The translations under genes were made by a program, and so were the position numbers. From Promethearchaeota archaeon (GTDB lineage Archaea; Asgardarchaeota; Lokiarchaeia; Sigyniarchaeales; SOKP01), in contig JBHLOY010000001.1 of NCBI GenBank assembly GCA_048939995.1, forward strand, positions 398,449 through 462,448: 64,000 nucleotides of DNA, in the 5' to 3' direction. The stretch's first letter is position 1, and the number at the start of each line of letters is the position of its first letter. Below are positions 2,723 to 37,952 of this stretch, one piece after another. The notes under the pieces are model-generated. The model did not search any database and had not been told where the DNA came from. It worked only from the letters and a program-made list of their open reading frames with translations.

Positions 2723-2742
2723 AGGAGAAATCTAATCCGTTA

Positions 2743-3216
2743 CTATTTGTTAATATATACACCTTCACTTAATTTTTGTTTTAAATCTGCAAAGGCTTTT
2801 TTCCATGCTTTATCAAAAAAGTTACGGGCTTCCTCCCATTCTGAGCTTTTCCTCCAACCAATATGGAAGAGATAAACAATAGTATTATTCTTGTTATCAC
2901 TTGGAAAGAAAAATATCACAACATGAGTCAATGGATCAGCAAAATTCATAAATGAATGAAATTGTTCAGGTCCCTTCCAATCAAATGATATAAATTTATT
3001 CAGTTCAATTCCTGTAATTTTACAACCTATTGTACTATTCAAATCAGGATTAGTAGGGTCCCAAAACAGTTCATACTTACCTCCAACTCTAGGTTCCACA
3101 TCAGCTTTTTCAGGTAACCAACTTTCTAGTAAAGAGTTTACAGTAAACATCTTAAAAGCTAAGTCTAAATCACAATTTAATTCAATTTTATGAAAGATTA
3201 TTCTTTCTATTTTCAA
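2743..3216 (-). CDS. SRPBCC/AHSA1 (START-like) domain protein
   Basis: LLESWL...VEPRVGGKYELFW, ISFDW, H-x-GW and a C-terminal W..AF..LK helix. Confidence 0.8.
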   Translation of the reverse strand: MKIERIIFHKIELNCDLDLAFKMFTVNSLLESWLPEKADVEPRVGGKYELFWDPTNPDLNSTIGCKITGIELNKFISFDWKGPEQFHSFMNFADPLTHVVIFFFPSDNKNNTIVYLFHIGWRKSSEWEEARNFFDKAWKKAFADLKQKLSEGVYINK

Positions 3217-3320
3217 TCACTTTTAGCTATTTTCTTATAGAATATTTAATATAATTATATATTAGTTTATTAATACAATTTATTTAATTTAGAGTGAAAA
3301 TTTGAGGGTAGAATCATATT

Positions 3321-8936: not shown

Positions 8937-9611
8937 TCAAACCGTTAAGCAAAAGATATAATTATTACCTTTTTTTCCAAAAACAGTAAGTAGGTTGATT
9001 TTTCTAAGAGTGTATGTCATCATTTGAGCTAACCTAACTGAAATATTTAGAGAATCTGAAAGCTCACGATTTGTAAATGGATTTTTAAGTGTTATTGGAA
9101 TTAATTGTAATAATTGTTTAGGATTAGAAAATATCTTCCAATCCAATACTTTAAGCAATCTTCGGTCACTAACACTCCATCCTTTTCGCCTCCAACTTCC
9201 TTTATTGTCTTTTACTCTAAGTTCTTCTGCTTGGATTAATAAAACCTCAATTGTGAGATTATAATGTGATATTAGATGAGGAATGTAAATTAGTTCTTTA
9301 AAAATATTGAGGAAGGAACCATGTTTTGGGGATAATCTTTTTGAATTTATTTTGTTACCAATTGGCTGTAGTTTTATAATCCATTTATCTTTAATTATGG
9401 GACAAATTAGAAGCACTTTGTTATTTTTAAGAAGTTCTTCGAGTTTTCTTCTTATTCCTGCAAAATTTTTTGTTTGAATTTCTATTAATAAATCTTCACG
9501 GGCAAGGTCAACTACGTATTTACCAATTGGGCTCTCAACCTTATCACCTGATTGTTTGAAGATTTGTTTTAAGGCTGCATGTAGGGATGTTTCATTTAAA
9601 GTGCCAATCAT
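8937..9611 (-). CDS. Conserved hypothetical protein: putative PD-(D/E)xK nuclease-like fold with C-terminal HTH
   Basis: E-x-S-L-H, then VD...IEIQT, a nuclease-like pattern; C-terminal FTNRELSDSLNIS HTH-like segment. Confidence 0.55.
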   Translation of the reverse strand: MIGTLNETSLHAALKQIFKQSGDKVESPIGKYVVDLAREDLLIEIQTKNFAGIRRKLEELLKNNKVLLICPIIKDKWIIKLQPIGNKINSKRLSPKHGSFLNIFKELIYIPHLISHYNLTIEVLLIQAEELRVKDNKGSWRRKGWSVSDRRLLKVLDWKIFSNPKQLLQLIPITLKNPFTNRELSDSLNISVRLAQMMTYTLRKINLLTVFGKKGNNYIFCLTV

Positions 9612-9715
9612 TTATAATTAGAATTTTATAGAAAAAATTAAAAATTGAATATTATTAGGAAAATATGCATCCTAAAATAATAGAAATATATTTCTAACAA
9701 ACTTTATCTGAGATT

Positions 9716-9898
9716 TTGGATTCAATACTCTATATGAAAGATGAGATTGAAAAAAGATTACATCGAGTTAAAATAATTAAGAATAGGAATAAGAATAATA
9801 TTAAATGCCCTATTTCTAAACAATGTAATTTTTCAGAAAATTCTTATAGATGTAGTCAGTTCTATAGGAAGTGTACATTTTATAGAATTTTCAAGTAA
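9716..9898 (+). CDS. Small four-cysteine (putative Zn-binding) protein
   Basis: CPISKQC...RC...KC in a 60-aa ORF upstream of the PadR gene. Confidence 0.4.
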   Translation: MDSILYMKDEIEKRLHRVKIIKNRNKNNIKCPISKQCNFSENSYRCSQFYRKCTFYRIFK

Positions 9899-9918
9899 CT
9901 CTTTTTAGGCAAAAATTT

Positions 9919-9948
9919 ATATATGCAATTTTCATATTTTGCATATAT
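9919..9948. promoter_or_regulatory. Inverted repeat, candidate PadR operator
   Basis: ATATATGCAA-N10-TTGCATATAT, with perfect 10-bp arms, about 40 nt upstream of the PadR start; a further ATGCAAA half-site at 9965-9971. Confidence 0.5.
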
Positions 9949-9987
9949 TGTCAATTTATCAAAAATGCAAATAATATTGAATGAATA

Positions 9988-10611
9988 TTGACTGAAAATT
10001 ATGACATAAAACATCGAGCTTTTGTTATATTAGGTTTAATTAATGAGAAAATGCATGAAGGTGGATGTCATGCATATGATATTAATAAAAGGATTGAAGA
10101 AAGGGGAATGAGGGATTGGACAAACATAGGTATTGATTTTTCATTCTCAACAATTTATCGAACCTTGGATAGACTAGAAAATGATGAGCTAGTAGAGAGT
10201 TTTGAGGAAGAAATAGATGGGAGAAATCGAAAAACATATAGAATTACACCTTATGGATATAAAATTCTGAAAAGTAACGTGTATGATGTTTTATATAATT
10301 ATAGGGGGAAGAAAGATGAAGATTTTTATGTTGCTTTTTCAATGTTTCCAATTCTTAATATTGAGGAACAAATTGAAGCTTTTACCCATTCATTAGTAAA
10401 TGTAAAGAATCATAGGAAAGAATTAGAAATCATGTTAAATGAAATGCTAGTTAATTTCCCAAAAATGCCAATCAACGTAACTGGTCTCTTTATCCACCCT
10501 ATTAAAATTCTCAAAACTGATGAAGAATTTTTCGAAATGGTGATAGATGAAATCAAAAAGTTTAGAGGAAATATCAATCCTAATGATTATAAACCAAGAG
10601 AGGCAGAATAA
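9988..10611 (+). CDS. PadR family transcriptional regulator
   Basis: ILGLI...HAYDI...STIYRTLDRLE..ELV...RKTYRIT..G. Confidence 0.9.
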   Translation: MTENYDIKHRAFVILGLINEKMHEGGCHAYDINKRIEERGMRDWTNIGIDFSFSTIYRTLDRLENDELVESFEEEIDGRNRKTYRITPYGYKILKSNVYDVLYNYRGKKDEDFYVAFSMFPILNIEEQIEAFTHSLVNVKNHRKELEIMLNEMLVNFPKMPINVTGLFIHPIKILKTDEEFFEMVIDEIKKFRGNINPNDYKPREAE

Positions 10612-11748
10612 ATGAAATATATGGTTAAAAATTTTAAACATCGAATCGGTTCTCATTGCGAATCTGCATCAATGAGAGATCTTTTTGAATATTATGGTTT
10701 TCCTATGTCAGAGGCTATGGCATTCGGTTTAGATGGTACAATGGGTTTCGGTTTTTTTGATATGTCTGATCAAACCTCATTCGTTATTGACTTTGATATA
10801 CCTTTCTTCTTAGGAGGGAAACAAGGAACGATTGACCCTAATAGCCTAGCGTGCCGTTTGTTAGGTATCACTCTTAGAAAACAATCTTTCACCAGTGCAG
10901 ATAAAGCATGGGAAGAATCAAAGAGATTGATTAAACAAAATGTGCCTCTTATAATACGGGTAGATATTGTCTATATGCCGTATGAAGATTTTGGAAATCA
11001 GAGTGATGAAACGCATTTTGGTGGACATGCAATAACATTAGCAGGATTCGATGAAGAGAAAGGTCTAGCTTATTTAGGTGATACAGAATTCGATGGTTTT
11101 CAATCAATCCCAATTAGTATTTTGAAAACAGCTAGAAGTTCAACTTATGGACCTAAATTTTTGCATCCGCAGAATACTCAATTTTCTATGAAATGTGGTC
11201 CTGATAATAAACATCCCCCCTTAGCTGCAGGAATAAAACTTGCAATTCAGCAAGTTGTAAACAATATGCTTCGAGCTTCGATGAATTATAACGGAATACA
11301 AGGGTTAAAGAGATTTGCGAGTTCTATACTCTCATGGGATGATAAATTGAAAAAAAAGGTGACTAATTCTAAGGGACATGAAACTTATTTAGCAAGCATA
11401 ATGTTTGATCTTATTTATGGATATATTGAGACTTGGGGTACAGGAGGGGCATGCTTTCGAAATTTATATAAAAATTTTCTTGAGGAATTGATACAACTTC
11501 CGGAGATAAAGAAAGGTCCTATGGCATGGAAGAATGAAGAAATAAAGATAATAGAAGATTGTTTACCTCTTATAGATGCTTCTAGGAAAAAGTGGACATT
11601 GTTTGCTCAATCACTAAAAAATTCTGTTGAAGAATATAAAAGTGAATGTTTATTGCATGTTAACTTGAATGAATTACAAAACACTGTTTTAGATATTTTA
11701 AAGAATGAAGAGATTTTATTTAAAAACTTATCAAGGATAAAAATCTAA
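10612..11748 (+). CDS. BtrH N-terminal/DUF4872 protein (papain-like Cys-His fold)
   Basis: G-S-HCES...SEAMAFGL and HFGGHAITLAGFD. Confidence 0.75.
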   Translation: MKYMVKNFKHRIGSHCESASMRDLFEYYGFPMSEAMAFGLDGTMGFGFFDMSDQTSFVIDFDIPFFLGGKQGTIDPNSLACRLLGITLRKQSFTSADKAWEESKRLIKQNVPLIIRVDIVYMPYEDFGNQSDETHFGGHAITLAGFDEEKGLAYLGDTEFDGFQSIPISILKTARSSTYGPKFLHPQNTQFSMKCGPDNKHPPLAAGIKLAIQQVVNNMLRASMNYNGIQGLKRFASSILSWDDKLKKKVTNSKGHETYLASIMFDLIYGYIETWGTGGACFRNLYKNFLEELIQLPEIKKGPMAWKNEEIKIIEDCLPLIDASRKKWTLFAQSLKNSVEEYKSECLLHVNLNELQNTVLDILKNEEILFKNLSRIKI

Positions 11749-25226: not shown

Positions 25227-26615
25227 TTAATCATTGATCCCCCAGGGAGGAATTGCTATAGCTCCTGTTACAATACTATCTGGATAAAGTACATTTCCAG
25301 ATGATATAACACTTTTTGAACCATCTGGTTTCCATTGACAATATAAAGTAGTACCATATGGCCAACCCACTACTGCATCATGAGCCTTATTCCAACCCAC
25401 GTAACCTGTTGAAACACTGTCTCCAATCCATGGGCTAGCTCTATTAAAGCTTTCGAGATACGTTATTAGCGTTTCAGTCTTAAAACTTCCAGTCGCGTTA
25501 ATGCTAGCAGCTATTGTGTTTACAGCGTCATAGGCTCCTACTGCTGTATATAAAGGTTCATGATCAAATGTAGCTATAAAATCATCCCAGAAGGCTATTG
25601 TTAAGTCAGTTTTATTTGTCCTATGAACAGACTGCATTATCGTTTCATAAGCACAATCTCCGCCAGTATCGTCCCAGAATGTATCTAATTGCGATTGAAC
25701 ATCGATGCCTACTAAAAGACATTGGGGTTGGAGAGCTGCATATTGAGTCATCATGTAAATTCCACCTTGAGCTGAGATTACGGGGATTGTTATTTGTGCA
25801 TTTGCCGCCTCTATTTGATTCCAGTAGGTAGCAAAATCTGTTGCTGTAGCAGTAATGGGATATGCAATGTCAGCTACTATGGTATATCCATATAATGGAA
25901 GGTAAGTATTAAGTGCAGTATCCATTGGAATGGTCCAGTCTAAAGCTTCTCGTAAAACTGCCACCTTGTTTATGGTTTTGTTAAGTACAAGAGGATTTTG
26001 TAAATATGCCTTGAGGAAAGCCATTTGGCCGATTTGTGATCCTCCTAATGCAGATGAATTAATAGGCATAACCCTAAACCAATACTTATATCTATTATAA
26101 CTAGAATACGCTTCTCCGTAAACATTATAGCAGAAATAATCGGTTGATGCTCCAGTTCCAAGAAATAACTTTTTAGCATCCATAACGACTTCTACATACG
26201 CTTTTAAAGCCTCTGTTCTAAATCCTCCTATTATATATTCTGCACCATCTACTTCAATAATTTTTTCTGCTGCACCAACTCCCTTAGTAACGTCAAGTAC
26301 AGGGTTTGATTCATCCGTATCTTCAGCTACGAGCCCTATATAGTAAGTCGTACCATTAACTTGAACTCCGCCACCGGTATTTATATTATAGGCTGCAAGC
26401 CAGGCTCCCTCATAATTTCCCTGTCCTTGTATTTCAGTTATACCTCCAAGTAAACCAATCTTAATTATTCGATTATCTGGTATACCTGAAACTCCCGGAG
26501 TTATAAAAGCAGATGCAGCTGGAGTTAATAAAAACCAGACGCCAACGCCTATACCTGCACCAGCGATAGCTAAGACAGCAACTATGGCTAAGATTCTTTT
26601 CATATTTCGTTCCAT
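25227..26615 (-). CDS. livK: Liv-type ABC substrate-binding protein (N-terminal membrane anchor)
   Basis: IKIGLL, INTGGGV, IGGFRTE, YWFRV, AYDAV; first gene of the liv operon. Confidence 0.85.
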   Translation of the reverse strand: MERNMKRILAIVAVLAIAGAGIGVGVWFLLTPAASAFITPGVSGIPDNRIIKIGLLGGITEIQGQGNYEGAWLAAYNINTGGGVQVNGTTYYIGLVAEDTDESNPVLDVTKGVGAAEKIIEVDGAEYIIGGFRTEALKAYVEVVMDAKKLFLGTGASTDYFCYNVYGEAYSSYNRYKYWFRVMPINSSALGGSQIGQMAFLKAYLQNPLVLNKTINKVAVLREALDWTIPMDTALNTYLPLYGYTIVADIAYPITATATDFATYWNQIEAANAQITIPVISAQGGIYMMTQYAALQPQCLLVGIDVQSQLDTFWDDTGGDCAYETIMQSVHRTNKTDLTIAFWDDFIATFDHEPLYTAVGAYDAVNTIAASINATGSFKTETLITYLESFNRASPWIGDSVSTGYVGWNKAHDAVVGWPYGTTLYCQWKPDGSKSVISSGNVLYPDSIVTGAIAIPPWGIND

Positions 26616-26782
26616 ATTTTAATCACTTTTTAGAAAGTTATTATTTTTAACAAATTTTTATATCTAAATTAGATTTGACAATTAGTATTTCAGATAAACA
26701 TATATTTAAATATTTATAATTGAACTCTGTATTTTTCTATAGACAGTCTAAAAAACAGTTATTAATTTACTAGCTTAGAAGG

Positions 26783-27736
26783 CTATTGATTTATTTTAAA
26801 CAGGTTAAATCCATTAGAAACATGGTCAATTATATCTGATCTTTTGTTAAAAGTCACTTTTAGACCATATACTGATCCTCGGAAATAACTTTCTGCCAGG
26901 ACTAGTATGACACTGCAATGTTCATCAGTTTTTTTAATAATCGGTATTTGTGCCTCCCATTTCGTAAAAAACACATAATTTTTTGCGATATTTATTGCTT
27001 TTTTATAATACTTCATATCTTCAGATGCATTTGATAACTGAGTTTCAAAAATTTTACTATTTTTTTTTGAAAATTGAATTTTCTTTCTTAATCTAAAAAT
27101 GCATAAGTTATCTGAAGAAATTTTTTCATAAATAAAATATCTAAATGGGAATAGACCAGGAATGTAAAGCGCATTAGAAGGCAATTTTGCTTGAATCCAA
27201 ATTTTAGAAATAATGCGATACATGAAATAGAGTAAATAAAATCCAAAAAAGTATTGAAATAGATATGAAAAGAATAGTTGTGGAAAAAAGAAGTATAATA
27301 TTGAATAAAATATTATTACTGTACCTGAGATAAGAGCTAAAACAAAATTAATTGCCCTATCTATAAAAAATCTATACCTTCTTTTCGAGAAGGGATAAAA
27401 AATAGGAATTTTGGACGCTGTCATTAAATCAAGTGAAATATGAAGACTGTAAAAAAGGAATCCGACAACCCAGACAATAACAAAATTTTCATTGGTAATA
27501 AGAGTAAATATACTTGCTGTAAAAAAAGAAAAGATGATTGCAGTAAAATAAGAATGGGATAATCCTTTGTGTGAGAGAAAATTTGATTTTTTAATTAATT
27601 GTAATGGTTCCAAGACAATATCAAAATCAGCAATGATAGCCATAATTATAGCATAGAGAACGATACTAAATGGTAATGAGTTAAGCGTGTAGATACTTAT
27701 AAATATTGCCATTAAAAAGTGTGTGAAAAAATCCAT
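26783..27736 (-). CDS. Membrane metal-dependent hydrolase (YdjM-like)
   Basis: MDFFTH, DFD, HKGLSHS, H..LD, YPF. Confidence 0.8.
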   Translation of the reverse strand: MDFFTHFLMAIFISIYTLNSLPFSIVLYAIIMAIIADFDIVLEPLQLIKKSNFLSHKGLSHSYFTAIIFSFFTASIFTLITNENFVIVWVVGFLFYSLHISLDLMTASKIPIFYPFSKRRYRFFIDRAINFVLALISGTVIIFYSILYFFFPQLFFSYLFQYFFGFYLLYFMYRIISKIWIQAKLPSNALYIPGLFPFRYFIYEKISSDNLCIFRLRKKIQFSKKNSKIFETQLSNASEDMKYYKKAINIAKNYVFFTKWEAQIPIIKKTDEHCSVILVLAESYFRGSVYGLKVTFNKRSDIIDHVSNGFNLFKINQ

Positions 27737-27841
27737 AAAAGCTCGAAGATTTAAATAAGGAATTATTTTTTAAGTTTCAGATTTTAAAATAAAGAGGAAA
27801 GAATTTAAATATTTTTTGCAATAAATTAAGGAGGCAATCCT

Positions 27842-27885
27842 TTTGTCAATCTCTTACTATAATTTTCTAAAAGATTTCATTCAAA
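27842..27885 (-). promoter_or_regulatory. SECIS-like kink-turn hairpin (eukaryote/Loki-type)
   Basis: Minus strand 5'-UUUG AAU GAA AUCUUUUA GAAAAUUAUAG UAAGAGAU UGA CAAA-3': 4-bp stem, 3-nt bulge, tandem G.A/A.G pairs, 8-bp stem and an unpaired apical AAAA. Confidence 0.7.
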
Positions 27886-27888
27886 TTA

Positions 27889-28356
27889 TTATAATTGTTT
27901 GTTAAAATAATGGATAAAATATTTATTCTCTTTACCATATTTTTGGCGCAGTATTGTTTTAAGTGACCCCATATCTAATCGTTCTTTTACTTTTTCTCAT
28001 CAACATCCTACATCTGGTTGTAATTGAATAAAGCTATTAGGATAGATATTGAATTCAATATTTTCCCTAATGGGGTTAAATTTACGTAAAATTCCATCCT
28101 CATCAGGTGCGTAGGCAAATACTCCGACGTCCTCATATATTAAACCTTCCTCTAAATTTACAAATAGTTGAAGATAACTATGAATGTAACTCTCATATAG
28201 TGGAAATATTGAATTCATAGAATCTTCCATTTCAATTTTATCAACCAATGCTAAAGCTTGGATAAATGTTGCGTTATCATTGAGTTCAAGAGAATACTTC
28301 TTACCCTGTTGGAGACCTTTAATTGGTATACTAATTTCAAATTCTACCTTTTTAAT
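27889..28356 (-). CDS. Putative selenoprotein with beta-grasp/MoaD-like fold and Gly-Cys-(Sec)-(Sec) motif; ends at 28000 if UGA is not recoded
   Basis: AGGTGA then ATT (28356) extends the track ORF by 36 codons. Reads ...PDVGC-TGA-TGA-EKVKERLDMGSLKTILRQKYGKENKYFIHYFNKQL-TAA, followed by the SECIS-like hairpin. Confidence 0.6.
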
Positions 28357-28378
28357 CTTTAATTCACCTATCGTATGA

Positions 28379-28648
28379 TTATATTAAGCCTTTTTCTTTA
28401 AGGAGAATGGGTAAATCTTTTTTCAGTAGAAATGCAGCAGTATATTTTCTTTCATTATCTACTACAATTGAGTTTCCATGTAAATTAAGGCTTCTAGCTT
28501 CTTCAGAATTAAGATTTTTTGTGCTATAATCAATATGTTTAATGTAAGGAGTTAAAACAATGAATACACGGTTCATAAACTTATCCCATTCGCAAGCACA
28601 GCTATCTAATGGCACATAAATGTCCACTTTTAATTTGCTATTTTCCAT
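28379..28648 (-). CDS. Small thioredoxin-fold/ArsD-like protein with CxC
   Basis: KVDIYVPLDSCAC resembles the position of the Cys cluster after the first beta strand in ArsD metallochaperones; also supported by gene context. Confidence 0.45.
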   Translation of the reverse strand: MENSKLKVDIYVPLDSCACEWDKFMNRVFIVLTPYIKHIDYSTKNLNSEEARSLNLHGNSIVVDNERKYTAAFLLKKDLPILLKEKGLI

Positions 28649-28659
28649 GGTTTAGATCC

Positions 28660-28965
28660 TTAAGAACAATTACATGATTGGTTTGAATTTTTTACTCTAC
28701 TTCTCACATTCCATAAACATCCACAACCAGGCTGTTCTTGCATAATGATAGCTTGGGTGGGGCAATTTCTCTTACAGGCACTGCACTCAGTACAGAGATT
28801 TTCATTAGTTATTTCATACTTTCCATTTTCATTTGGTTTTGGTAATCCAAAAGGGCAAATCTCTCCACACAACCCACAACCATTACAGATATCTTTATTA
28901 ATAAAGATACGCAGATTCTTCATGATTTGTGTGATATTTAAAGACTTAAAATCTATTTCAGTCAA
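28660..28965 (-). CDS. hgcB: HgcB-like 2x[4Fe-4S] ferredoxin
   Basis: CNGCGLCGEICP and CTECSACKRNCP, then GCGC and C-terminal SCNCS. Directly downstream of the hgcA-like gene. GGAGGTG favours a TTG start at 28965. Confidence 0.7.
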   Translation of the reverse strand: MTEIDFKSLNITQIMKNLRIFINKDICNGCGLCGEICPFGLPKPNENGKYEITNENLCTECSACKRNCPTQAIIMQEQPGCGCLWNVRSRVKNSNQSCNCS

Positions 28966-29010
28966 ACTTAACACCTCCTAATCTACAATATTATTAATTT
29001 TTTATATTAT

Positions 29011-30681
29011 TTAAACAAATATAACTCCAATTGTTAATGAAATCAAGCCTATTATTAAAAAAACCTTATTTAATAAGCTAAATAGGGGATATTCATTTTC
29101 AATTTTTCTTGGGCTTGTTGCCATTGTATAACCACTGGAAGACATAGTGGAAAAAAAAGCAATCCAAAAGAAAAATCCAATATTTATGAGGACATAAAGA
29201 ATTGAACTATGAAGCCACCACGTTAGTAATCCCAAAATACTAATATTAATGAATCCATAGAATATTCCCTTAAATACAAATTTTTGGGTAAAATCTGAAA
29301 GAGGAAACAATAAAAATATAATTAGATTTGTAATTATGACCCAAAGGCAGATTTCCCCAATCCACCAAACCTTATCAAAGTTTGTAAAAATTGCTAGTCC
29401 TAAGAATAGGAAGAATAAAGCGATTATAGGTAAAAGAAACACTTTACGGAAGAGAAATGTAGTGTGGGTTATTACTGCACGCATGCGATGAGACAATTTA
29501 AATTTAGCGAGCTTCATTTTATCTGATTTTTTAGACGGCTTTTCTTTTAAATAGTCTGGTATAAACTTGGACCATACTGGGCCATATTTAACCTTAAATG
29601 GAAATTTTTCGGAACTTTTAGGTAGTTCTGGAATAGCTATTCCGCCAGCAGAAAGTTGAGGAAGCAGAAGTGTTTTTTTATTAGAAATATATTGAATTCC
29701 AGAAGTTTCTACAGCTTCGAGGAGTTGGGAATTACCAAAATTATTTCCGCGAGCCGCACACCATACATTAATCCCATTAGAATCGACACATAATACCCAT
29801 GCGTTGATCTTTTTCAAATCTCGCATAACTTTAATATATGTATAATCATAATTTGCAGTAACAATAATAGGGGAATCTTTATCGGGAGTCCCAGATTCAT
29901 AAATCCCTGGCTCAATAGGAACATGATCCACTTGACCGGTGAAGGTGCAACGGTATATCCTTAATTGAGATTTTATTCCTTTAAATTTTCTCGGTTTAGG
30001 ACGATAATAACCAGGTTCATTTTTTTGATTGACAATTACTTTTTGAAGCTCTAATGCTTGGATAGAGCCATGTTTCCACTTTTTTTGAGTTTTAATTTTG
30101 AATCCGATTGATTCTAGATAATTAAAGAACCATTTAACACGGAAAGTATTTTGTAATCGAAGTCTTCTAATTTTTTTCTTGTACCACCATCTTTTAATAT
30201 TAAAGATTAATCTCCAAAATCCTGAAGGCACAAATTCAGCTCCAATTATTAAACTTCCTTCTGGTTTTAGGACTTTCCATGCATTTCGAAGGAAAATTTG
30301 CTGTTCAAATGGACGTAATTCTGATAACATAAAAGTACTTACTACCACATCCTTAGAAGAATCTTCCATATGTATATCTGAGAAAGTCCCAATTTGATAA
30401 GTTAGTTTCAAATTTTCTTCTTGAGGATAATTCTGCATTGCAAAAGTAATCATCTTAAAATTTTTGTCAATTGCAATAACATTATTACCCTTTAATGCCA
30501 TTTTAGCAGCGAGTACACCTGTACCACATCCAATCTCTAAAACATCTGAAGCATTTACACGATCAAGAATCCATTTCTGGACTTCTTTATTAACTCCCTT
30601 TGTAAGAGTGGTAAATTTTGAATCATATGTATCTGGTTCCTGTTCCAATTTCCTCATATATACGACAGCCATTAAATACAC
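29011..30681 (-). CDS. hgcA: Fusion: SAM methyltransferase + HgcA-like corrinoid domain + transmembrane domain
   Basis: VLEIGCGTG; PGIY..G.PD..SPIIVTANY, DSNGINVWCAARG (cap helix), LLLPQLSAGG, YGPV; about 5 C-terminal TM helices with GYT..TS. Confidence 0.75.
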   Translation of the reverse strand: MYLMAVVYMRKLEQEPDTYDSKFTTLTKGVNKEVQKWILDRVNASDVLEIGCGTGVLAAKMALKGNNVIAIDKNFKMITFAMQNYPQEENLKLTYQIGTFSDIHMEDSSKDVVVSTFMLSELRPFEQQIFLRNAWKVLKPEGSLIIGAEFVPSGFWRLIFNIKRWWYKKKIRRLRLQNTFRVKWFFNYLESIGFKIKTQKKWKHGSIQALELQKVIVNQKNEPGYYRPKPRKFKGIKSQLRIYRCTFTGQVDHVPIEPGIYESGTPDKDSPIIVTANYDYTYIKVMRDLKKINAWVLCVDSNGINVWCAARGNNFGNSQLLEAVETSGIQYISNKKTLLLPQLSAGGIAIPELPKSSEKFPFKVKYGPVWSKFIPDYLKEKPSKKSDKMKLAKFKLSHRMRAVITHTTFLFRKVFLLPIIALFFLFLGLAIFTNFDKVWWIGEICLWVIITNLIIFLLFPLSDFTQKFVFKGIFYGFINISILGLLTWWLHSSILYVLINIGFFFWIAFFSTMSSSGYTMATSPRKIENEYPLFSLLNKVFLIIGLISLTIGVIFV

Positions 30682-30712
30682 CTATTTTCTTGTATTTTAT
30701 AATAAAATAAAC

Positions 30713-31771
30713 CTATTGAGATTTCCAAAAACCTCGTTTTTTTAGATACCTGCCTAAATAAACTATTGAAAGCATTATGGGGACTTCCCAAAATAATCCC
30801 ATAGTAGTCCCCAATGCTGCAATTGAACCAACACCATAGATTGCGATAGCAGTAGCGATTGCAATTTCAAAATGACTTGAAGATCCAATAATTACAGTTA
30901 TTACAGCCTCTTTGTATTTTAATTTAAAAAATTTGGTAATTAGGATATTGTATCCAACAACAATAGCAAAACCAACCAGAAGTGGTATTGAAACCAATAA
31001 TAACAAATCTGGATTAAGTACTAGAACTTGTCCATTTAAAGAAAAAAGCACAGCTAGAGTAGTCAATAGAGCTAAAATAGAAATTTTTCCTACTAGAGGG
31101 CGATAAATATTATTAAACCAATCTATTCCCTTGGAAGAAATAATAAGTCTTTTAGATATAATACCAAGTAATAAAGGAAGCCCAATAAAAATTAATGTTG
31201 AAAATAATAAAAGGATCCAATTTATTGGGATGCTTTGAATACCTGTTAATAACGTTACCATTGGAGCATAACCAAATATTATAGTTATGGTGTTTAAACT
31301 AGTATTAATTACATTCTGTTCTTGATTTCCTCGTGCCATCCAGCCCCATACAAGAACCATCGCTGTACACGGTGAACTAGAGAGTAATATAATAGCGACT
31401 GAAAGTTGTTGATTTCCAGCTAAAAACAAATTAACCATCAGTAACCCTATAAAAGGAGCAACTAACCAATTAGAGATTAATGTTAAAATGATAGGTTTAG
31501 GATTTCTTCCCAATTTCTTTAATTCTGAGGCCTGAATATTTAACATTGCAGGATACATCATCAAAAACAAACAAATCCCAATAGGAACTGAAATTTCCCC
31601 TATTTTTATAGCATCAATTGCTTCACTGATGCCTGGAAAAAATTGCGATAAAAGAATTCCAATAAGAATACATAAAGCAACCCATAGGGGAAGAAATTTC
31701 TCAAAAAAACCAATATCTTTCCCTTTCTCTTTCGAAACTTGTTCTATTCGATTTAATCTTTCTTTTTGCAT
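30713..31771 (-). CDS. acr3: Acr3 family arsenite efflux transporter
   Basis: FFEKFLPLWVALC, LMMYP, NW, PCTAMVLVW, FEIAIATA, EVPIML. Confidence 0.9.
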   Translation of the reverse strand: MQKERLNRIEQVSKEKGKDIGFFEKFLPLWVALCILIGILLSQFFPGISEAIDAIKIGEISVPIGICLFLMMYPAMLNIQASELKKLGRNPKPIILTLISNWLVAPFIGLLMVNLFLAGNQQLSVAIILLSSSPCTAMVLVWGWMARGNQEQNVINTSLNTITIIFGYAPMVTLLTGIQSIPINWILLLFSTLIFIGLPLLLGIISKRLIISSKGIDWFNNIYRPLVGKISILALLTTLAVLFSLNGQVLVLNPDLLLLVSIPLLVGFAIVVGYNILITKFFKLKYKEAVITVIIGSSSHFEIAIATAIAIYGVGSIAALGTTMGLFWEVPIMLSIVYLGRYLKKRGFWKSQ

Positions 31772-31774
31772 AAT

Positions 31775-32530
31775 TTATTGAATAACCTCTTCTAAAATAA
31801 GTGTTGAATCTTTATTCCTTCTTTCATACTCTCTTCTAATGTTTTTAATAAAAGATTTTAAATTATTTGTAAGTTTATTGAAACTTTCCAAGGAGATACC
31901 ATTAAATATTGAGACTAAATGGATAATACCAGCCACTTCCTTATCGCATGTATGACCAAAACGCGGAGCACGGCATTCATAACAAACATTTAAAGCGAAA
32001 TTTTGAAGATTATTTTCCTCAAACTCCTTGTTCAATAGAAAATCTGCTCCTGCCTTTGAAGAACCACATAATGATGATCTTTCTATATCAATTCTATTGA
32101 TAACTCCACTATTATCTATACTGAAATGATAAATTGGACGACCAAAATATGTAGTAAATAAATCAACTTCAGAGATACCCGTATTATTCTCTAATGAACA
32201 CATTGTAGGAGCATAAATAACATTAGGATTCACCTTTCTGGCTTGTAAATATAAACCTATTCCCGGAAGCACTCCTAAAATCACTGGTTTTTGGAGTTCA
32301 ACAAGTTGAGTTATAATGTCAGGATGACGAACATATGAAATGTAAAGGTCACATTCAGGGATGTTTAGATCCAGCTCATCATCTAACATAATATTCGATG
32401 GAATCTCTGGTACAAGTATCCATTTAGTTTCAAACTTTTTTTTTATGTTTTCAAATGCTCTATCCCCATATTTCCCATCAGAAACTACTCCAACCGTTAA
32501 TTTTTCTTTTTTTTCCATTTTATATACCAT
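31775..32530 (-). CDS. DUF166 family protein
   Basis: YGDRA, HPD, MCSL, FGRP, RSSLCGS, YECRA, IH; recognised from memory of the family. Confidence 0.6.
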   Translation of the reverse strand: MVYKMEKKEKLTVGVVSDGKYGDRAFENIKKKFETKWILVPEIPSNIMLDDELDLNIPECDLYISYVRHPDIITQLVELQKPVILGVLPGIGLYLQARKVNPNVIYAPTMCSLENNTGISEVDLFTTYFGRPIYHFSIDNSGVINRIDIERSSLCGSSKAGADFLLNKEFEENNLQNFALNVCYECRAPRFGHTCDKEVAGIIHLVSIFNGISLESFNKLTNNLKSFIKNIRREYERRNKDSTLILEEVIQ

Positions 32531-32659
32531 TCATTATGGTTAGAGCTTAAGGTATAGAAAGAACCATTCAAATAAAAATGTTTCGATGTAAATTGATTTT
32601 TTTCGATTTGGATAAAACTTTTATAATTTAATATCTTTATATATAATATAAATAGATTT

Positions 32660-33064
32660 TTGGTGGTTTTTATCAAGGTTAATCGGAGGACAACAATCAA
32701 AGAAATGCTATGTAGTTGCGAGGAAGGTTCTGATAGTGAAAAGTATTTTAAAAATTTAGAAAAATTAGGAGAAAACCTAAAATTAGATGACAAGATCAAT
32801 TCTACATTAATATTTTTAAATGCTTTAGGAAATAAAGAACGATTAACTATTATTAACGCCTTGAAAGAAAAAGATCGTTGTGTATGTGAATTAGAAGTTA
32901 TTTTAGACAAATCTCAACCTTCCATATCTCATCATCTAAGAGAATTAGAAAAAGCTAACTTGATTCGAGGGTGGAAAAAAGGGAAATTTACATATTATAG
33001 TCTTTTAGAAAATAATTTTAAGGAGCAATTAGAAAATTTCTATCATGAATATAGGCTTGGATAA
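32660..33064 (+). CDS. arsR: ArsR/SmtB family repressor, divergent from the acr3 operon (start uncertain)
   Basis: ALGNKERL.I...CVCEL...SQPSISHHL..L...GKFTYYSL; additional N-terminal CSC. Confidence 0.9.
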   Translation: MVVFIKVNRRTTIKEMLCSCEEGSDSEKYFKNLEKLGENLKLDDKINSTLIFLNALGNKERLTIINALKEKDRCVCELEVILDKSQPSISHHLRELEKANLIRGWKKGKFTYYSLLENNFKEQLENFYHEYRLG

Positions 33065-33232
33065 ATAATCCGTCGATAATCATGGTGTAGAAGGTTGAAA
33101 ATATGATGAATTAAATTCTTTCTTTTTGAATTAGTCATAATTAGACATAATTTCGATGACCTTACATATGAGATTTTTTTGTCGAAATAAGGTTCACCGC
33201 TAAATATTTATGTATAAATTCCCATGTAGATA

Positions 33233-34498
33233 ATGTTTATTATTTTAAGATTGAGATTATTAATGAAGCGTTCAGAAAATGGAGCAAATGAAAAAAAATA
33301 TTATCGGGTAATTCTACCTTCGGATTTTCAAATTGAGAAAGAGGATATTTTTTATCGCGATAAGTATAATGATATTATGAATTATTTTAAAGTTTTACTA
33401 ACTAGTGACGAGTATTCAGAAATTCAACAATATGTACAACCAAAAGGATTAATTCTTCTCAATATCCATCCTAGTACAGATATTTTAGACTTCTTGAGAT
33501 TAATCTCAAAGAATTACTTTTTAGATCTTATAGAGTTAGATTATTTTGAAATTTTGAAATCACCTTTAAAATTTCTTAATAGATTCGATCTAATCTTTCA
33601 AAATATAGTTGATGAGACTAAACATAAAGATGAACTTCAGAATGATTCTAAAAGCTATTTGGATAGCTATGAGAAGATTAAACCAAACAGATTGATATTG
33701 ATAAATGAATCTGAATTGCCAGAAAATTTACTTAATGAGCAAAATTTACTGAATTTCTTCTTAGCTTATTATAAAAGTTACAAACCAGAATATATAAAAA
33801 ATGGAATTATATTAGTATGGTTAAATGAACGCCTAGATGGTATAAATTTAAATTTTGTCTACCAAATTTTCGATCAATTAATTAAAGTTCCCCATTTAAG
33901 CATTGCAGAAAAGGAAGTATATCTAAGGAGCTATTCTGAAAAGAACCCTAGAATTGTATTTGATATAAATACAGTGATCAGTTATACTAAAGATTGGGAA
34001 ATTTTAGATATTAGAAATCTGTTAAAATTAGCCATTTTTAAGCAGTTCCTTAATTTTGAGCTAAATAAAACTTCTAATGAAATAACAGATATTATTATAA
34101 ATTTAATCGATTCAGGCGAATTTAAACCAGCAACTTTTTGCAATAATCAATTAACTCCAGATAAGGATTTAAGCAGAGAATCAATATTTATGAAAAAAGG
34201 CTTCAAAAATAAGGAAATGAACCTTAACGAGTTACAATCTATAATGAATGATATTCAAACTCAACCTATTTCTGAATTCATGTTAAGCCAATTATATGAA
34301 AATGCGGCTTTTAAAAATTATACAGAACTGGTCATAATTATCGATAAATTAAATAAAAACGAAGTACTTGAAGAAAACGAGAGAAGATTACTTGCTAATT
34401 ATCCTTTCATCTTAAATGATCCTCCAAATAGAGCCCAGATTCACTTAGAGAAGGCAAAAAAAAAAGTTGACCATATAAGACAGAGTTTTAGCAGATAA
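33233..34498 (+). CDS. Degenerate (probably inactive) AAA+ ATPase-like protein
   Basis: PKGLILLNIHPSTD at the Walker A position (no GKT); IFDQLIKVPHLS..EKEVYL resembles RFDR..VPLP..E.R..IL; co-oriented with smc. Confidence 0.5.
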   Translation: MFIILRLRLLMKRSENGANEKKYYRVILPSDFQIEKEDIFYRDKYNDIMNYFKVLLTSDEYSEIQQYVQPKGLILLNIHPSTDILDFLRLISKNYFLDLIELDYFEILKSPLKFLNRFDLIFQNIVDETKHKDELQNDSKSYLDSYEKIKPNRLILINESELPENLLNEQNLLNFFLAYYKSYKPEYIKNGIILVWLNERLDGINLNFVYQIFDQLIKVPHLSIAEKEVYLRSYSEKNPRIVFDINTVISYTKDWEILDIRNLLKLAIFKQFLNFELNKTSNEITDIIINLIDSGEFKPATFCNNQLTPDKDLSRESIFMKKGFKNKEMNLNELQSIMNDIQTQPISEFMLSQLYENAAFKNYTELVIIIDKLNKNEVLEENERRLLANYPFILNDPPNRAQIHLEKAKKKVDHIRQSFSR

Positions 34499-34517
34499 AT
34501 AAAGAGGGGTTTCCACG

Positions 34518-37500
34518 ATTTCTATCGAAGCAGAAAGTATTTATTTAAAAAAGGTGATTCTTGAGAACTTCTTGAGTTTTCAAAGAGATGAAATAAATTT
34601 CGAGGATTCCAAATTCGTTATAATAATTGGACCTAATTGGTCGGGAAAAACGTCAATTTTTCAGGCGATTAAATTTGCTCTAGGAAGTAATGAAAGAGAT
34701 GAAAGATATAAAAAATGGTCTGATTTTATAAGGAATGGGCAAGACCATGCGATGGTTGAAGTTCATATACTAAATAATGAAGAATTAATCAAAATAAGGA
34801 GAACGGTGGTTAGAGGACAATCCCCGTTTTTTGAGATTGAAAGAATTACTAGTAAGGGCTTTCAAAGAGTTAATGCAAATGATATACAAGATTTAATTTC
34901 TAATTTAAGTATAAATCCTGATAATCAATTTGCTTTTGTAAGTCAAGGAAAAATTGATGTGATTAAAAGTTTAAAACCCATTGAACTTTGCGCTTTTTTA
35001 GAAGAGGGAATTGGATTGAAAGGGCTTAGGGAAGAAATTTTACTTCAAAAAAGAGGTATTTTTAGTCTAAATAGAGAATTTCAATCTATCTTGAGTCGTC
35101 GAAATACCCTAAATATTAATCTTAATCTTTTACAGCCTAAAATCCAACGCTTAAAAGAAAAACAAAAGCTTCTTGAGAGAAAGAAACGTTTTACAGATGA
35201 GTTATTATATGCAAACAGACAAAAGTTAGAAGATAACATAAGCCATTTAAGAGAAAAATTAAAAGAACAACAAGTATCTATTAGTGAGATCAAAAAGGTT
35301 ACTGAAAATTATCGAACTGTGCTTTCAGAAAAGCAATCAAAACTGAATGAGATTGAAGAAAATATCAACGAGTTTTCAGAGGAGTTAGGTCAATTAACTT
35401 ATAAAAAAAAAAGTCTAATAGAAAAAATTCAAATTTGGGAAAAAGAAAAAGTATTAGCCAAAAAGGAATTAGATGATCTAAATTTAAACGTTTTAAATCT
35501 TGAAAAAATTGTTAAAAATATTGAGAGTCAAAGGAATAAATTAGTCAGTGAGGTTAATTTAATTCAGAAAGAAATTTACTCTTTGAGGGGAAATATTGAC
35601 AAATTAATAAAAGAACAGAATACATTAACAAAAAAATTGAAGCAAAATGAAGATTTTTTAAAGGATTATCATAATTTAACTTCTAAAAAAGGAGATTATA
35701 GCAAGAAGATTGAAGATAATAAAAAACAGATAAAGGATATCAATTCAGAAATCAATGAGATTTTCCAGAGTTTTAAAGATATTGAACATAGATTAGAAAA
35801 GAATAAATGGTTTCTTGAAAATCCTACTTCTGATTTACTTTTACATCTTGATGGGGAAATTAGAAACTACTCCAAAGACCTTTTCGAATTAGGGAAAGAA
35901 TTAACTAATTTGCAATTCAAAAGAACTAACTTATTAGAGAGTTTTAAGAATCTACAAGTCTCCTTAAGAGAGCGAAAAGTGATTTTTCCGTCGAGTATTA
36001 ATATTTTAAAAGAAGAAATTGAAAGAAGGGAGTTAACCAATCAAGTAAAGGGGCCAATAATTGAATTCTTGCAGTATGATGATGAGCTAAGTTATGCAAT
36101 CGAATCGGTTTTGGGCGAAAGATTGTTATATAGTTTCGTTGTTAACGAATGGGATATTTTAAATCTCTTAAATAAAATAAAAAACAAATATAATGCCTAT
36201 TGTAATATTTACATAACTAAGAGTCTTGAAATTCGCCCTTTACCTCAATTTTCTGCTGATAATGTTATTGGTTATTTAGTAGAATTAATAAGAGTAGCTA
36301 ATAATGATAAAGATATTCTAAAAGTTATATATTCTAAAGTAAGGAATTGCTTAGTAGTTAAGGACTACCATTCAGCAATCCAAATCTATAAGAATTATAA
36401 TTTTAGGGGAAAATGTGTGACTTTAAAGGGAGAGCAGTTAATATCTTATAACTATGTATATGAAACTCCTTTTCAAAAGCGTCTAAAGGGTTTACTAAGT
36501 GCTAGTACTTTAAAAGAAAAACTAACTAAATTAGAGACTGAGATAGAAGCTATAAATAAAAGAATTTTTGAGTTAAGAGCTGAATACTCTACGATTGACC
36601 AAAATCAGAAAGATCTATACGAAAGAAAAGAATCATTTAACGATTTACTATATAACTTTAATCAAAAGCAGAGATTGACCTCAAAAAAGAATCAACTCTA
36701 TGAGCTTACGCATAATCTTGAGAATGATATTTTAGAACTCCAAAATAAAATCATTGAAATAGAGAACCAGATTCAGATTCTAGAGTCCCAGAGAGATCCG
36801 GAGATTTTTAAATTAAATGACAGAATTGAAGAGATACCGGACGAATTACATCTCTACAATGAAGATTTAAAAAAATGGGATAAAAAATTGAATTCTAATA
36901 TGCAACAGGAACAAGAGATCAATGAAAAACAAGCAACTCAAAAAAAAAAATTGATGGATTTAAAACAAGATTATGATATGAAAAAGCAAAAGTTTCAAAA
37001 CTCAGATAAGAAAGCTTTTTCAATATATAAGAAGCTGGAATCAATTGAGGATGAAATAGATGAAATAGAAAATAATATCTCAAAATCAAAGGACCAAAAG
37101 TTAGAGATCCAACAAGAAAAAACAGAAGTTGAAAAGGAACACATAGAGATAAAAATAAAACTAGAACAAGAATTACTAAAAAAAGTTGGCATTGAACAAG
37201 AGTTATCATCTAATGAAAAAGATTTAGAAAGAATAAATTCTGAGATAAGTGTTTTGGTATCTAATAAGGAAATTAAAATACGTCCTATTAATGATATTAG
37301 AGAAGATATTCTAATAATAGATAAAACCCTGTTAAAATATTTAGATGTGGATGACTCGATCCTAATTGAAAAGGCTCAAATACTATCCAGTATGAAAGAG
37401 ATTGCGAAACATCAAAAAAGTCTAGAAAAAGATATAAAATCGGCTATTAAAACCGAGAATAAACTGGAAGAAACATATTTTAATAAATTTAAGGGAACTT

Positions 37501-37952
37501 TAAATGATTTGGAATTAAAAATCAACCAAAAATTTGAATCTGCTAATATAAAATCCTATTGTTCCCTTAATTTAATCGGCAATTTTGAAGATTTAGGAAT
37601 AGATATTAAGGCTGCAACTACAAAAGAACAATTAAAATCTTTTAAGGCACTTAGCGGAGGTCAAATTTCAATGATTTCAATTTGCCTAATTCTTTCACTT
37701 CAGGAAATTAAACCATCACCGCTTTGTATGTTTGATGAGGCAGGTATGTTTTTAGATGACAAAAATTCAGAAGCATCCTATCAAATGATTAAGGCTACAC
37801 TTGAGCAAAATCCAGTACAACTACTCATGTTTTTACCCAAGTCGTCAAACAATTTATATTTATTAGCTGATAAGTTAATTGGAGTAGCGAGGATTGGTAA
37901 AAAAGAAGTTTCTACAATTTTTAAACCAAAAATTTTAAAAGAAAAAATATGA
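34518..37952 (+). CDS. smc: SMC family ATPase, Smc5/6-like (probable ATT start at 34518)
   Basis: YLKKVILENFLSF, GPNWSGKTS, NQFAFVSQGKI, hinge GPIIE...AIESVLG, long coiled coils, LSGGQ, PLCMFDEAGMFLD, QLLMFLPK. Confidence 0.9.
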   Translation: MSIEAESIYLKKVILENFLSFQRDEINFEDSKFVIIIGPNWSGKTSIFQAIKFALGSNERDERYKKWSDFIRNGQDHAMVEVHILNNEELIKIRRTVVRGQSPFFEIERITSKGFQRVNANDIQDLISNLSINPDNQFAFVSQGKIDVIKSLKPIELCAFLEEGIGLKGLREEILLQKRGIFSLNREFQSILSRRNTLNINLNLLQPKIQRLKEKQKLLERKKRFTDELLYANRQKLEDNISHLREKLKEQQVSISEIKKVTENYRTVLSEKQSKLNEIEENINEFSEELGQLTYKKKSLIEKIQIWEKEKVLAKKELDDLNLNVLNLEKIVKNIESQRNKLVSEVNLIQKEIYSLRGNIDKLIKEQNTLTKKLKQNEDFLKDYHNLTSKKGDYSKKIEDNKKQIKDINSEINEIFQSFKDIEHRLEKNKWFLENPTSDLLLHLDGEIRNYSKDLFELGKELTNLQFKRTNLLESFKNLQVSLRERKVIFPSSINILKEEIERRELTNQVKGPIIEFLQYDDELSYAIESVLGERLLYSFVVNEWDILNLLNKIKNKYNAYCNIYITKSLEIRPLPQFSADNVIGYLVELIRVANNDKDILKVIYSKVRNCLVVKDYHSAIQIYKNYNFRGKCVTLKGEQLISYNYVYETPFQKRLKGLLSASTLKEKLTKLETEIEAINKRIFELRAEYSTIDQNQKDLYERKESFNDLLYNFNQKQRLTSKKNQLYELTHNLENDILELQNKIIEIENQIQILESQRDPEIFKLNDRIEEIPDELHLYNEDLKKWDKKLNSNMQQEQEINEKQATQKKKLMDLKQDYDMKKQKFQNSDKKAFSIYKKLESIEDEIDEIENNISKSKDQKLEIQQEKTEVEKEHIEIKIKLEQELLKKVGIEQELSSNEKDLERINSEISVLVSNKEIKIRPINDIREDILIIDKTLLKYLDVDDSILIEKAQILSSMKEIAKHQKSLEKDIKSAIKTENKLEETYFNKFKGTLNDLELKINQKFESANIKSYCSLNLIGNFEDLGIDIKAATTKEQLKSFKALSGGQISMISICLILSLQEIKPSPLCMFDEAGMFLDDKNSEASYQMIKATLEQNPVQLLMFLPKSSNNLYLLADKLIGVARIGKKEVSTIFKPKILKEKI

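Follow-up and report, generated by a model that had tools for sequence, protein, structure and literature searches.

Among the closest described systems to the genes considered here are HgcA and HgcB of Pseudodesulfovibrio mercurii ND132, the pair that methylates mercury. HgcA joins a corrinoid domain, whose cap helix bears an N-V-W-C motif with the cysteine ligand, to a C-terminal membrane domain of five helices, while HgcB, encoded separately next to it, is a ferredoxin with two [4Fe-4S] clusters whose additional cysteines follow the second cluster and stand at the C-terminal end. ArsR-family regulators are frequent neighbours, as are ars genes, and S-adenosylmethionine (SAM) has been shown experimentally to be the methyl donor: Zheng et al. 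2024 found that in purified HgcAB the methyl group comes from SAM and passes through a Cys-ligated methylcob(III)alamin, the two clusters of HgcB serving electron transfer (PMC11588087). Here we describe a two-gene module of similar layout in a 64,000-nucleotide stretch of an Asgard archaeal contig (Promethearchaeota archaeon, GCA_048939995.1, JBHLOY010000001.1, positions 398,449 to 462,448), which we call the window. In it, a methyltransferase fused to HgcA-like corrinoid and membrane domains (MT-HgcA, or the fusion) is followed by an HgcB-like ferredoxin. Unlike HgcA, the fusion begins with a SAM methyltransferase of the CpaM type, about 220 amino acids (aa) long; its cap helix reads WCAARG where HgcA has WCA(A/G)GK, and where HgcB shows its canonical pattern, the ferredoxin carries CTECSAC, GCGC and CxC. 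The pair also scores under both curated cut-offs, the fusion lies in a separate clade, and the activity, unlike that of HgcAB, is predicted only.

The association of a methyltransferase with an HgcA-like protein is one that NCBI curators had already noticed, in the CpaM and HgcAB-like families (NF043040, NF043039; 'fused HgcAB' in P. furiosus and others). There, too, a methyltransferase of this type accompanies an HgcA-like corrinoid membrane protein, but the partners are swapped: those families join the ferredoxin to it and leave the methyltransferase on its own, or unite all three in one chain, whereas in the window it is the methyltransferase that is fused, with a separate ferredoxin. The window's protein also lies outside that clade (91/90 vs 100/96) and under both cut-offs. 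ArsM (AS3MT; NF008823) is likewise a class I SAM methyltransferase module of ars operons and occupies the same slot in sister genomes, but its homology to the fusion is limited to a generic Rossmann fold, the fusion's methyltransferase domain is without the arsenic-binding cysteine set, and the transfer proposed for the fusion would be indirect, through cobalamin, with a ferredoxin needed. The corrinoid iron-sulfur protein's (CFeSP's) large subunit (AcsC/CdhE; PDB 2h9a, 2ycl, 4djd) has a homologous cobalamin-binding Rossmann-like domain but, unlike the fusion, has neither a Cys cap helix nor a transmembrane (TM) domain, belongs to a different operon and receives its methyl group from methyl-tetrahydrofolate via a TIM-barrel methyltransferase. 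Chemical precedent for methyl transfer from SAM to Co(I) comes from class B radical SAM methylases, TsrM and MetH reactivation (PMC11588087); in contrast to the fusion, these have unrelated SAM-binding folds and neither a class I Rossmann methyltransferase domain nor a membrane anchor.

From the comparisons below we consider it somewhat probable that the two genes, from a distinct Asgard lineage, make up a self-contained HgcAB-type system for cobalamin-dependent methyl transfer, whose substrate would most likely be As(III) and possibly Sb(III). Such a system touches questions that the mercury-methylation field has been asking, namely the native function of HgcAB, the route from SAM to the corrinoid and the company that hgcAB keeps with arsenic genes. 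With the SAM module physically fused, placed in an arsenite-efflux operon and swapping with ArsM, this sister lineage makes the idea that HgcA-type enzymes are metalloid methylases testable with a two-gene module. If the proposal is true, anaerobic arsenic methylation in sediments gains an unrecognised genetic marker that arsM surveys miss, and metagenomic hgcA-like matches need sorting by lineage before being taken as methylmercury potential.

The fusion protein and its ferredoxin

An earlier note on this DNA had described a class I methyltransferase joined to a corrinoid domain with GINVWCAARG and a TM domain, and, as the next gene, an HgcB-like dicluster ferredoxin with CTECSAC, GCGC and a C-terminal CNC. 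Both genes are present where it placed them, on the minus strand (Table 1). The longest open reading frame (ORF) for the fusion has a GTG start and 556 codons; the more likely start is the ATG at 30672, giving 553 aa, because relatives and the family alignment and consensus begin there. At the N-terminus stands a class I methyltransferase with the motif LEIGCGTG (Pfam Methyltransf_11 at 7e-17). The CpaM profile NF043040, a hypothetical equivalog, matches it with 147.6 bits against a cut-off of 180 (E 3e-43; profile positions 2-215 of 216), while the next-best methyltransferase family, UbiG, reaches 54.7 bits. By its sequence, then, the domain is specifically CpaM-like, though under the curated cut-off, and two further features expected of CpaM, in-frame joining to an HgcA-like corrinoid protein and intact SAM motifs, are found in the fusion.

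The corrinoid-binding domain matches PF03599 over residues 245-345 (50.2 bits), and its putative cobalt-ligating residue is Cys308, the counterpart of Cys93 in ND132 HgcA. Behind it the protein ends in helices at residues 388-424, 431-454, 460-483, 486-510 and 516-547, the five-TM arrangement of HgcA. These come from an AlphaFold2 model built on a 44-sequence alignment of fusions (predicted local distance difference test, pLDDT, 91; predicted TM score, pTM, 0.87). With this model, Foldseek returned as its top match an HgcAB model, 9a0b_A (E 1e-11), which is itself computed and not a solved structure, and then class I methyltransferases. A search of PDB sequences with the fusion matched no solved HgcA, only CFeSP and generic methyltransferases; by sequence, the PDB relative of the corrinoid domain is the C-terminal domain of the CFeSP large subunit (E 2e-9). 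Across the 44 aligned fusions, which reach down to 24% identity, the glycines of motif I and the cap-helix N-V-W-C are invariant, and the acidic residue after strand 2 of the methyltransferase domain is kept in at least 90%. An additional cysteine in the linker between the two domains (residue 245 of the 556-aa ORF, in R-C-x-F-T-G) is kept in at least 90% of the fusions, distant ones included, and may provide one more thiol related to a metal(loid) or a cofactor.

For the ferredoxin, TTG at 28965 is the more likely start (101 aa) within an ORF of 104 aa that contains CNGCGLCGEICP, CTECSACKRNCP, GCGC and a terminal CNCS. The HgcB profile NF040864 matches with 54.6 bits against a cut-off of 99 (profile positions 10-87 of 93), and both CX2CX2CX3CP cluster motifs are there. 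Its extra cysteines take a variant form throughout the ferredoxin alignment, with GCGC in 27/27 sequences and a C-terminal CxC or CC likewise in 27/27. We compared 29 named Asgard loci with the fusion, and in all 26 that include downstream DNA the ferredoxin comes after it.

A word-indexed search with the fusion gave 601 clusters at 90% identity (E<=1e-5). The best 120 of these are all full-length (521-578 aa), 63-100% identical to the fusion, labelled Promethearchaeota/Lokiarchaeota, Hod-, Hermod- or Odinarchaeota, and annotated only as 'methyltransferase domain-containing protein'. Since at least 120 clusters at 90% identity share the full-length architecture, and since the ferredoxin follows at every locus with downstream DNA, the fusion architecture is real and far beyond chance. 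Both cultured Asgard archaea, P. syntrophicum (P0187) and L. ossiferum (L045), have a member of the family.

Place among HgcA-type proteins

The earlier note called the corrinoid part HgcA, a name that the profiles, the cap helix and the phylogeny do not bear out. On the HgcA profile NF040863 the fusion scores 163.3 bits (164.6 in a genome search) against a cut-off of 275, and on the HgcAB-like fusion profile NF043039 it scores 173.5 bits (209.6 when read across into the next gene) against 285; the C-terminal fused ferredoxin expected of the latter is here a separate ORF. The ArsM profile NF008823 gives 35.4 bits against 263. NVWCAARG is not among the cap helices of verified mercury methylators, which are NVWCAAGK, NVWCASGK, NVWCAGGK, NIWCAAGK, NIWCAGGK and NVWCSAGK (PMC10087281), and the WCAARG form is common to the Asgard MT-HgcA clade.

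A careful maximum-likelihood tree of the HgcA-like domain was calculated from 86 rows and 305 columns under LG+C20 PMSF, with eight CdhE outgroups. CdhE splits from the HgcA superfamily at 100/100, so the clustering with CdhD/AcsC-type paralogues that the earlier note had named as counting against its reading does not appear. Within the superfamily the window's fusion lies outside the true HgcA clade (100/99) and outside a third clade (91/90) that holds other methyltransferase fusions, triple fusions and HgcAB-like proteins; it belongs instead to an Asgard MT-HgcA clade with L. ossiferum and P. syntrophicum (100/99, or 100/96 with P0232). As the tree puts it in a clade of its own, the fusion, on sequence grounds, does not belong with true HgcA, with the HgcAB-like fusions or with the CdhD/AcsC paralogues, and represents a separate Asgard lineage. 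With these outgroups the branching order of the three lineages was not resolved, and a sister relation of Asgard MT-HgcA to true HgcA, seen in a quick tree (Shimodaira-Hasegawa-like approximate likelihood ratio test, SH-aLRT, 92), was dropped. The methyltransferase association is found in every lineage of the HgcA superfamily except true HgcA.

That hgcA-like genes occur in Asgard archaea, as the earlier note held, has been reported (PMC10083202). In the tree of Lin et al. the Asgard sequences fall to the side of 'fused HgcAB'; that alignment had lost its first 327 columns to trimming, and the methyltransferase domain is not discussed (PMC10083202). Our literature search, which left one possibly relevant paper uncovered, found no paper on the MT-HgcA fusion or its placement in ars operons, or using the term CpaM. 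New here are the phylogeny with its three lineages, the reading of the ars context as ancestral, the slot exchange with ArsM and the recurrent CVC motif of ArsR.

A word-indexed search with the HgcA-like half alone found the same fused family only and no named reference HgcA; the HgcA references were drawn from an exhaustive search of representatives. This second search gave a continuum running from Asgard MT-HgcA with WCAARG through distant MT-HgcA (from Heimdall/Hodarchaeales, plus one from Abyssubacteria), MT-HgcA-ferredoxin triple fusions and HgcAB-like fusions to many true HgcA with WCAAGKGTFG. PGAP names some of the Hodarchaeales fusions 'CpaM'. In 151 genomes of the phylum, CpaM-like matches form two score populations, at least 211 bits for stand-alone proteins or triple fusions and 108-152 bits for the window's type of fusion. 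The CpaM-type methyltransferase thus meets its HgcA-like partner in three architectures: a separate CpaM with an HgcAB-like fusion, a triple fusion, and MT-HgcA with a separate HgcB. The window's genome has the first of these as well, on another contig (C14:26362-28137; L001, ORFs 1498-2160 and 2197-3294), where a stand-alone CpaM (253.7 bits) lies 37 nucleotides (nt) upstream of an HgcAB-like fusion (360.6 bits) with the cap helix NVWCGACG; a transposase-like ORF adjoins, and the pair is not in an ars operon. The genome therefore encodes two paralogous methyltransferase-corrinoid systems plus an ArsM.

The ars operon and its methylase position

The module lies in an operon ordered ArsR (divergent) / DUF166 - ACR3 - fusion - HgcB-like ferredoxin - p89 - small Ubl, with same-strand gaps of 3-45 nt. 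The divergent ArsR has its CVCELE where, as we take it, classical ArsR has the ELCVCDL motif that binds As(III), and CVCEL is kept in 17/17 orthologues adjoining the fusion. Another Asgard family, whose fusions are only 31-34% identical, has ArsR-like genes with CVC directly upstream of them on the same strand (L055 and L058). The ACR3 is the only ACR3 match in the genome; ACR3 is directly upstream of the fusion in 12 of the 18 fusion-bearing genomes of the window's family, and it adjoins the fusion in all 11 of the window's genus.

Table 1. Features of the window discussed in the text (position 1 is the first letter of the window)
Feature	Position	Strand	Basis or remark
MT-HgcA fusion, 553 aa	29011-30672	minus	CpaM-like SAM methyltransferase, HgcA-like corrinoid-binding domain, five TM helices
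Longest ORF of the fusion, 556 aa	29011-30681	minus	GTG start
Methyltransferase domain	30013-30672	minus	about residues 4-223 of the 556-aa ORF; NF043040 (CpaM) match
Motif I, GxGxG	30517-30540	minus	in the methyltransferase domain
Acidic motif, AIDKN	30460-30474	minus	in the methyltransferase domain
Linker	29935-30012	minus	R-C-x-F-T-G
Corrinoid-binding domain	29506-29934	minus	NF040863, NF043039 and PF03599 matches; aligns to the CFeSP large subunit C-terminal domain (2h9a)
GINVWCAARG	29746-29775	minus	residues 303-312 of the 556-aa ORF
Cap helix NVWCAARG	29746-29769	minus	
Membrane domain, five predicted TM helices	29017-29505	minus	AlphaFold2 model and hydropathy scan agree
HgcB-like 2x[4Fe-4S] ferredoxin	28660-28965	minus	NF040864 match; extra GCGC and C-terminal CNC cysteines
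ORF of the ferredoxin, 104 aa	28660-28974	minus	
ArsR/SmtB regulator	32660-33064	plus	divergent; CVCELE motif; PF01022 at 5e-15, NF033788 at 74 bits
DUF166 protein	31775-32530	minus	first operon gene; PF02593 at 1.5e-27
ACR3-type arsenite efflux permease	30713-31771	minus	TIGR00832 at 270.4 bits, just under cut-off 282.8; E 2e-80
p89, 89-aa thioredoxin-fold protein	28379-28648	minus	invariant CxC-x-W; no Pfam match; model with pLDDT 94.5
Small ubiquitin-fold (Ubl) protein	27889-28356	minus	last operon gene; syntenic tblastn match downstream of the fusion
421-aa protein (p421) and 1132-aa SMC-like protein	33233-37952	plus	p421 without Pfam match; syntenic with the ars operon in the family

One pointer to the substrate is what takes the module's place elsewhere, for canonical ArsM (>350 bits) fills the same operon position in sister genomes without the fusion. 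One of these has ACR3-ArsM-Ubl (genome G144, locus L082) and another ArsR / ArsM-p89-Ubl with remnants of DUF166 and ACR3 (G138, L083), tblastn finding the Ubl gene downstream of ArsM in both; a third genome (G129, L084) has ArsM-DUF166-fusion-HgcB within one operon. ArsM was found in only 3/12 genomes with an ACR3-adjacent fusion, against 4/6 with the fusion elsewhere and 3/8 without it, counts given without statistics because the genomes are close kin and not independent samples. On this pattern, the ars operon reads as having a methylase slot that is filled either by ArsM or by the MT-HgcA/HgcB module. Many Asgard ArsM matches above the cut-off carry one in-frame stop inside the matched region, TAA in G064, G088, G070, G047, G065, G145, G017 and G003 and TAG in G038 and G025, which could be either a match-boundary artefact or stop-codon recoding; the latter has been reported for some Asgard lineages (PMC9723677).

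Among the 29 named loci, ArsR and/or ACR3 are directly upstream of the fusion in 12, no ars gene is present in 13, and two further loci are cut upstream yet retain p89 and the Ubl gene. When the fusions are placed on a tree, those with an ars context form a paraphyletic group that extends to the deepest-branching ones (L. ossiferum, ~50% identity). Because of this, and because the loci without ars genes amount to one derived clade plus L044, the linkage to ars genes is the older state. In the derived subclade the ars operon is reduced to ACR3-p89, with the fusion located elsewhere. One locus (L060, G135:C84) has at 9547-9627, between the fusion and ArsR, an ACR3-like remnant (67% identity over ~27 aa); that genome keeps its intact ACR3 on a different contig, next to a second p89 copy, which reads as an ars operon caught mid-rearrangement. 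The distant loci are heterogeneous: a radical SAM protein is directly upstream of MT-HgcA in L051 (G102:C5, ORF 9684-10826), and a DHDPS-Fae fusion is downstream in L054.

Of the remaining operon genes, DUF166, which NCBIfam names a (seleno)protein family, is syntenic in many fusion loci and stands between ArsM and the fusion in L084. The fold of p89 matches thioredoxins and glutaredoxins weakly but uniformly (E ~0.01, TM 0.55-0.67), with an Atlas lead to PF13192. We considered p89 as an accessory specific to the methylase and rejected this, as p89 is found beside ACR3 even where the fusion sits elsewhere; in many Asgard genomes it stays beside or within a few kb of ACR3, with or without a methylase. 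It looks like an undescribed ars-operon accessory, with CxC-x-W in place of CxxC. On the far side of ArsR, the gene order is always SMC - p421 - ArsR (L020, L031, L033, L037-L039, L042, L062-L067), a conserved block that could inflate the apparent conservation of the neighbourhood. An Rfam scan of window positions 26000-34000 at E<=0.1 returned nothing, and so no riboswitch.

Proposed mechanism and competing explanations

In the mechanism we propose, the HgcB-like ferredoxin would reduce the corrinoid on the HgcA-like domain to Co(I), and the fused CpaM-type domain would bind SAM and offer the methyl group to this Co(I), so that CH3-Co(III) forms beneath the cap helix with Cys308. From there the methyl group would go to a soft metalloid bound by thiols, for which the ferredoxin's GCGC and C-terminal CxC cysteines are the probable holders; in a last step the ferredoxin would re-reduce the cobalt. 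The earlier note had already suggested that the fused domain loads the corrinoid from SAM in cis; this is plausible, and is strengthened by the use of SAM by HgcAB and by NCBI's CpaM family concept. Since purified HgcAB takes SAM as its methyl donor, a path from SAM to a Co(I) corrinoid and on to As(III) or Sb(III) seems the likeliest. The earlier note had left mercury, arsenic or another soft metal(loid) open as the substrate. Two features of the context favour As(III) and Sb(III): in sister genomes the slot goes to ArsM, and the ArsR regulator is of the CVC type. This CVC-type control, together with co-transcription with the genome's only ACR3, suggests that the module may be a corrinoid-based functional counterpart, or a partner, of ArsM. 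Perhaps, and here we are more doubtful than confident, the lineage represents an ArsM-independent, cobalamin-dependent arsenite (or antimonite) methylation that is widespread in Asgard archaea, hinting that SAM-driven methylation of metalloids is what the whole HgcAB superfamily evolved for, and that methylating mercury is a side reaction within one branch.

Several points weigh against arsenic methylation by the module. The cargo of ACR3 is As(III) rather than methylarsenicals, and the window's operon showed no ArsP-like exporter. We had considered that the window's genome might be without ArsM, and this was refuted by a stand-alone ArsM of 341.4 bits outside the ars operon; with a canonical ArsM elsewhere in the genome, arsenite methylation is not obviously missing there. 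Simple redundancy of ArsM and the fusion is argued against by L084, where both share one operon. The derived subclade of 15 loci, plus L044, has the fusion outside an ars context, beside MarR, MFS and other neighbours, and the distant fusions of other Asgard families do not adjoin ACR3. True HgcAB uses SAM without a methyltransferase domain (PMC11588087), so the role given here to the fused domain is a proposed one. Finally, true hgcAB is often flanked by ars genes, so that an ars context fits mercury too, as a substrate or side substrate (PMC7438021), and it is induced by arsenic through an ArsR (bioRxiv 10.1101/2022.10.17.512643).

The explanation that best survives beside ours, which we still regard as rather unlikely, is a SAM/corrinoid methyl or redox system working on another acceptor, whether Se/Te species, thiol or selenol groups of co-encoded proteins, or halomethanes by Co(I) dehalogenation, with arsenic as the inducing stress only. 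The operon's products do include a thioredoxin-fold protein with CxC and one of the DUF166 (seleno)protein family, the derived subclade lies outside ars operons, the genome already has an ArsM, and halomethane dehalogenation by HgcAB is reported in a 2026 preprint (10.64898/2026.04.26.720869). However, p89 need not be a substrate, since it tracks ACR3 rather than the methylase; the slot exchange is specifically with ArsM, and the regulator has the As/Sb-type CVC motif.

We likewise think it unlikely that the fusion is a working mercury methylase equivalent to HgcAB, its ars neighbourhood reflecting ArsR-family regulation only, as in P. mercurii ND132. The residues that matter for mercury methylation do have counterparts in the module, in the cap-helix Cys, the Cys after the second cluster of HgcB and the C-terminal Cys (PMC11588087, PMC7305189), and arsR, acr3 and arsM flank true hgcAB in many genomes, and arsenic induces it (PMC7438021; bioRxiv 10.1101/2022.10.17.512643). 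The sister placement of the quick tree would also have favoured this explanation, but it is gone in the careful tree, which keeps the fusion outside true HgcA; moreover, the cap helix is not one of the verified methylators' motifs (PMC10087281), and the scores are under the cut-offs for both HgcA and HgcB. Among non-canonical relatives only fused HgcAB proteins, from P. furiosus and others, have been tested, and these do not methylate mercury (PMC10083202, PMC10087281). No mer genes are nearby, and what sister operons substitute is ArsM, not any mercury gene.

It is very unlikely, in our judgement, that the module runs the other way, as an anaerobic demethylase in which the corrinoid takes the methyl group from the methylarsenicals MAs(III) or DMAs and ACR3 exports the resulting As(III). 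Export of As(III) by ACR3 fits such a product; in methanogens, corrinoid methyltransferase systems have been connected with anaerobic arsenic demethylation, and no anaerobic counterpart of ArsI is known according to the same preprint (bioRxiv 10.64898/2026.08.27.747368). Yet it is not obvious what a class I SAM domain whose SAM motifs are intact would do in the disposal of a methyl group, HgcAB works in the direction from SAM to the metal (PMC11588087), and the module is exchanged with a methylase, ArsM, rather than with a lyase.

The last alternative, a CdhD/AcsC-type corrinoid protein of acetyl-CoA (Wood-Ljungdahl) metabolism, has hardly any credibility left: the PF03599 match and the name 'Acetyl-CoA decarbonylase/synthase complex subunit gamma' that one source gives to P0187 of P. 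syntrophicum point to it, but it is refuted by the profile NF003195 (ACDS gamma), which gives the fusion 66.8 bits against a cut-off of 306 in a match confined to the cobalamin domain, by the genome's own bona fide CdhE (471.6 bits), and by the split in the tree; in addition, the fusion carries a TM domain and a cap helix with Cys, and no cdh genes adjoin it.

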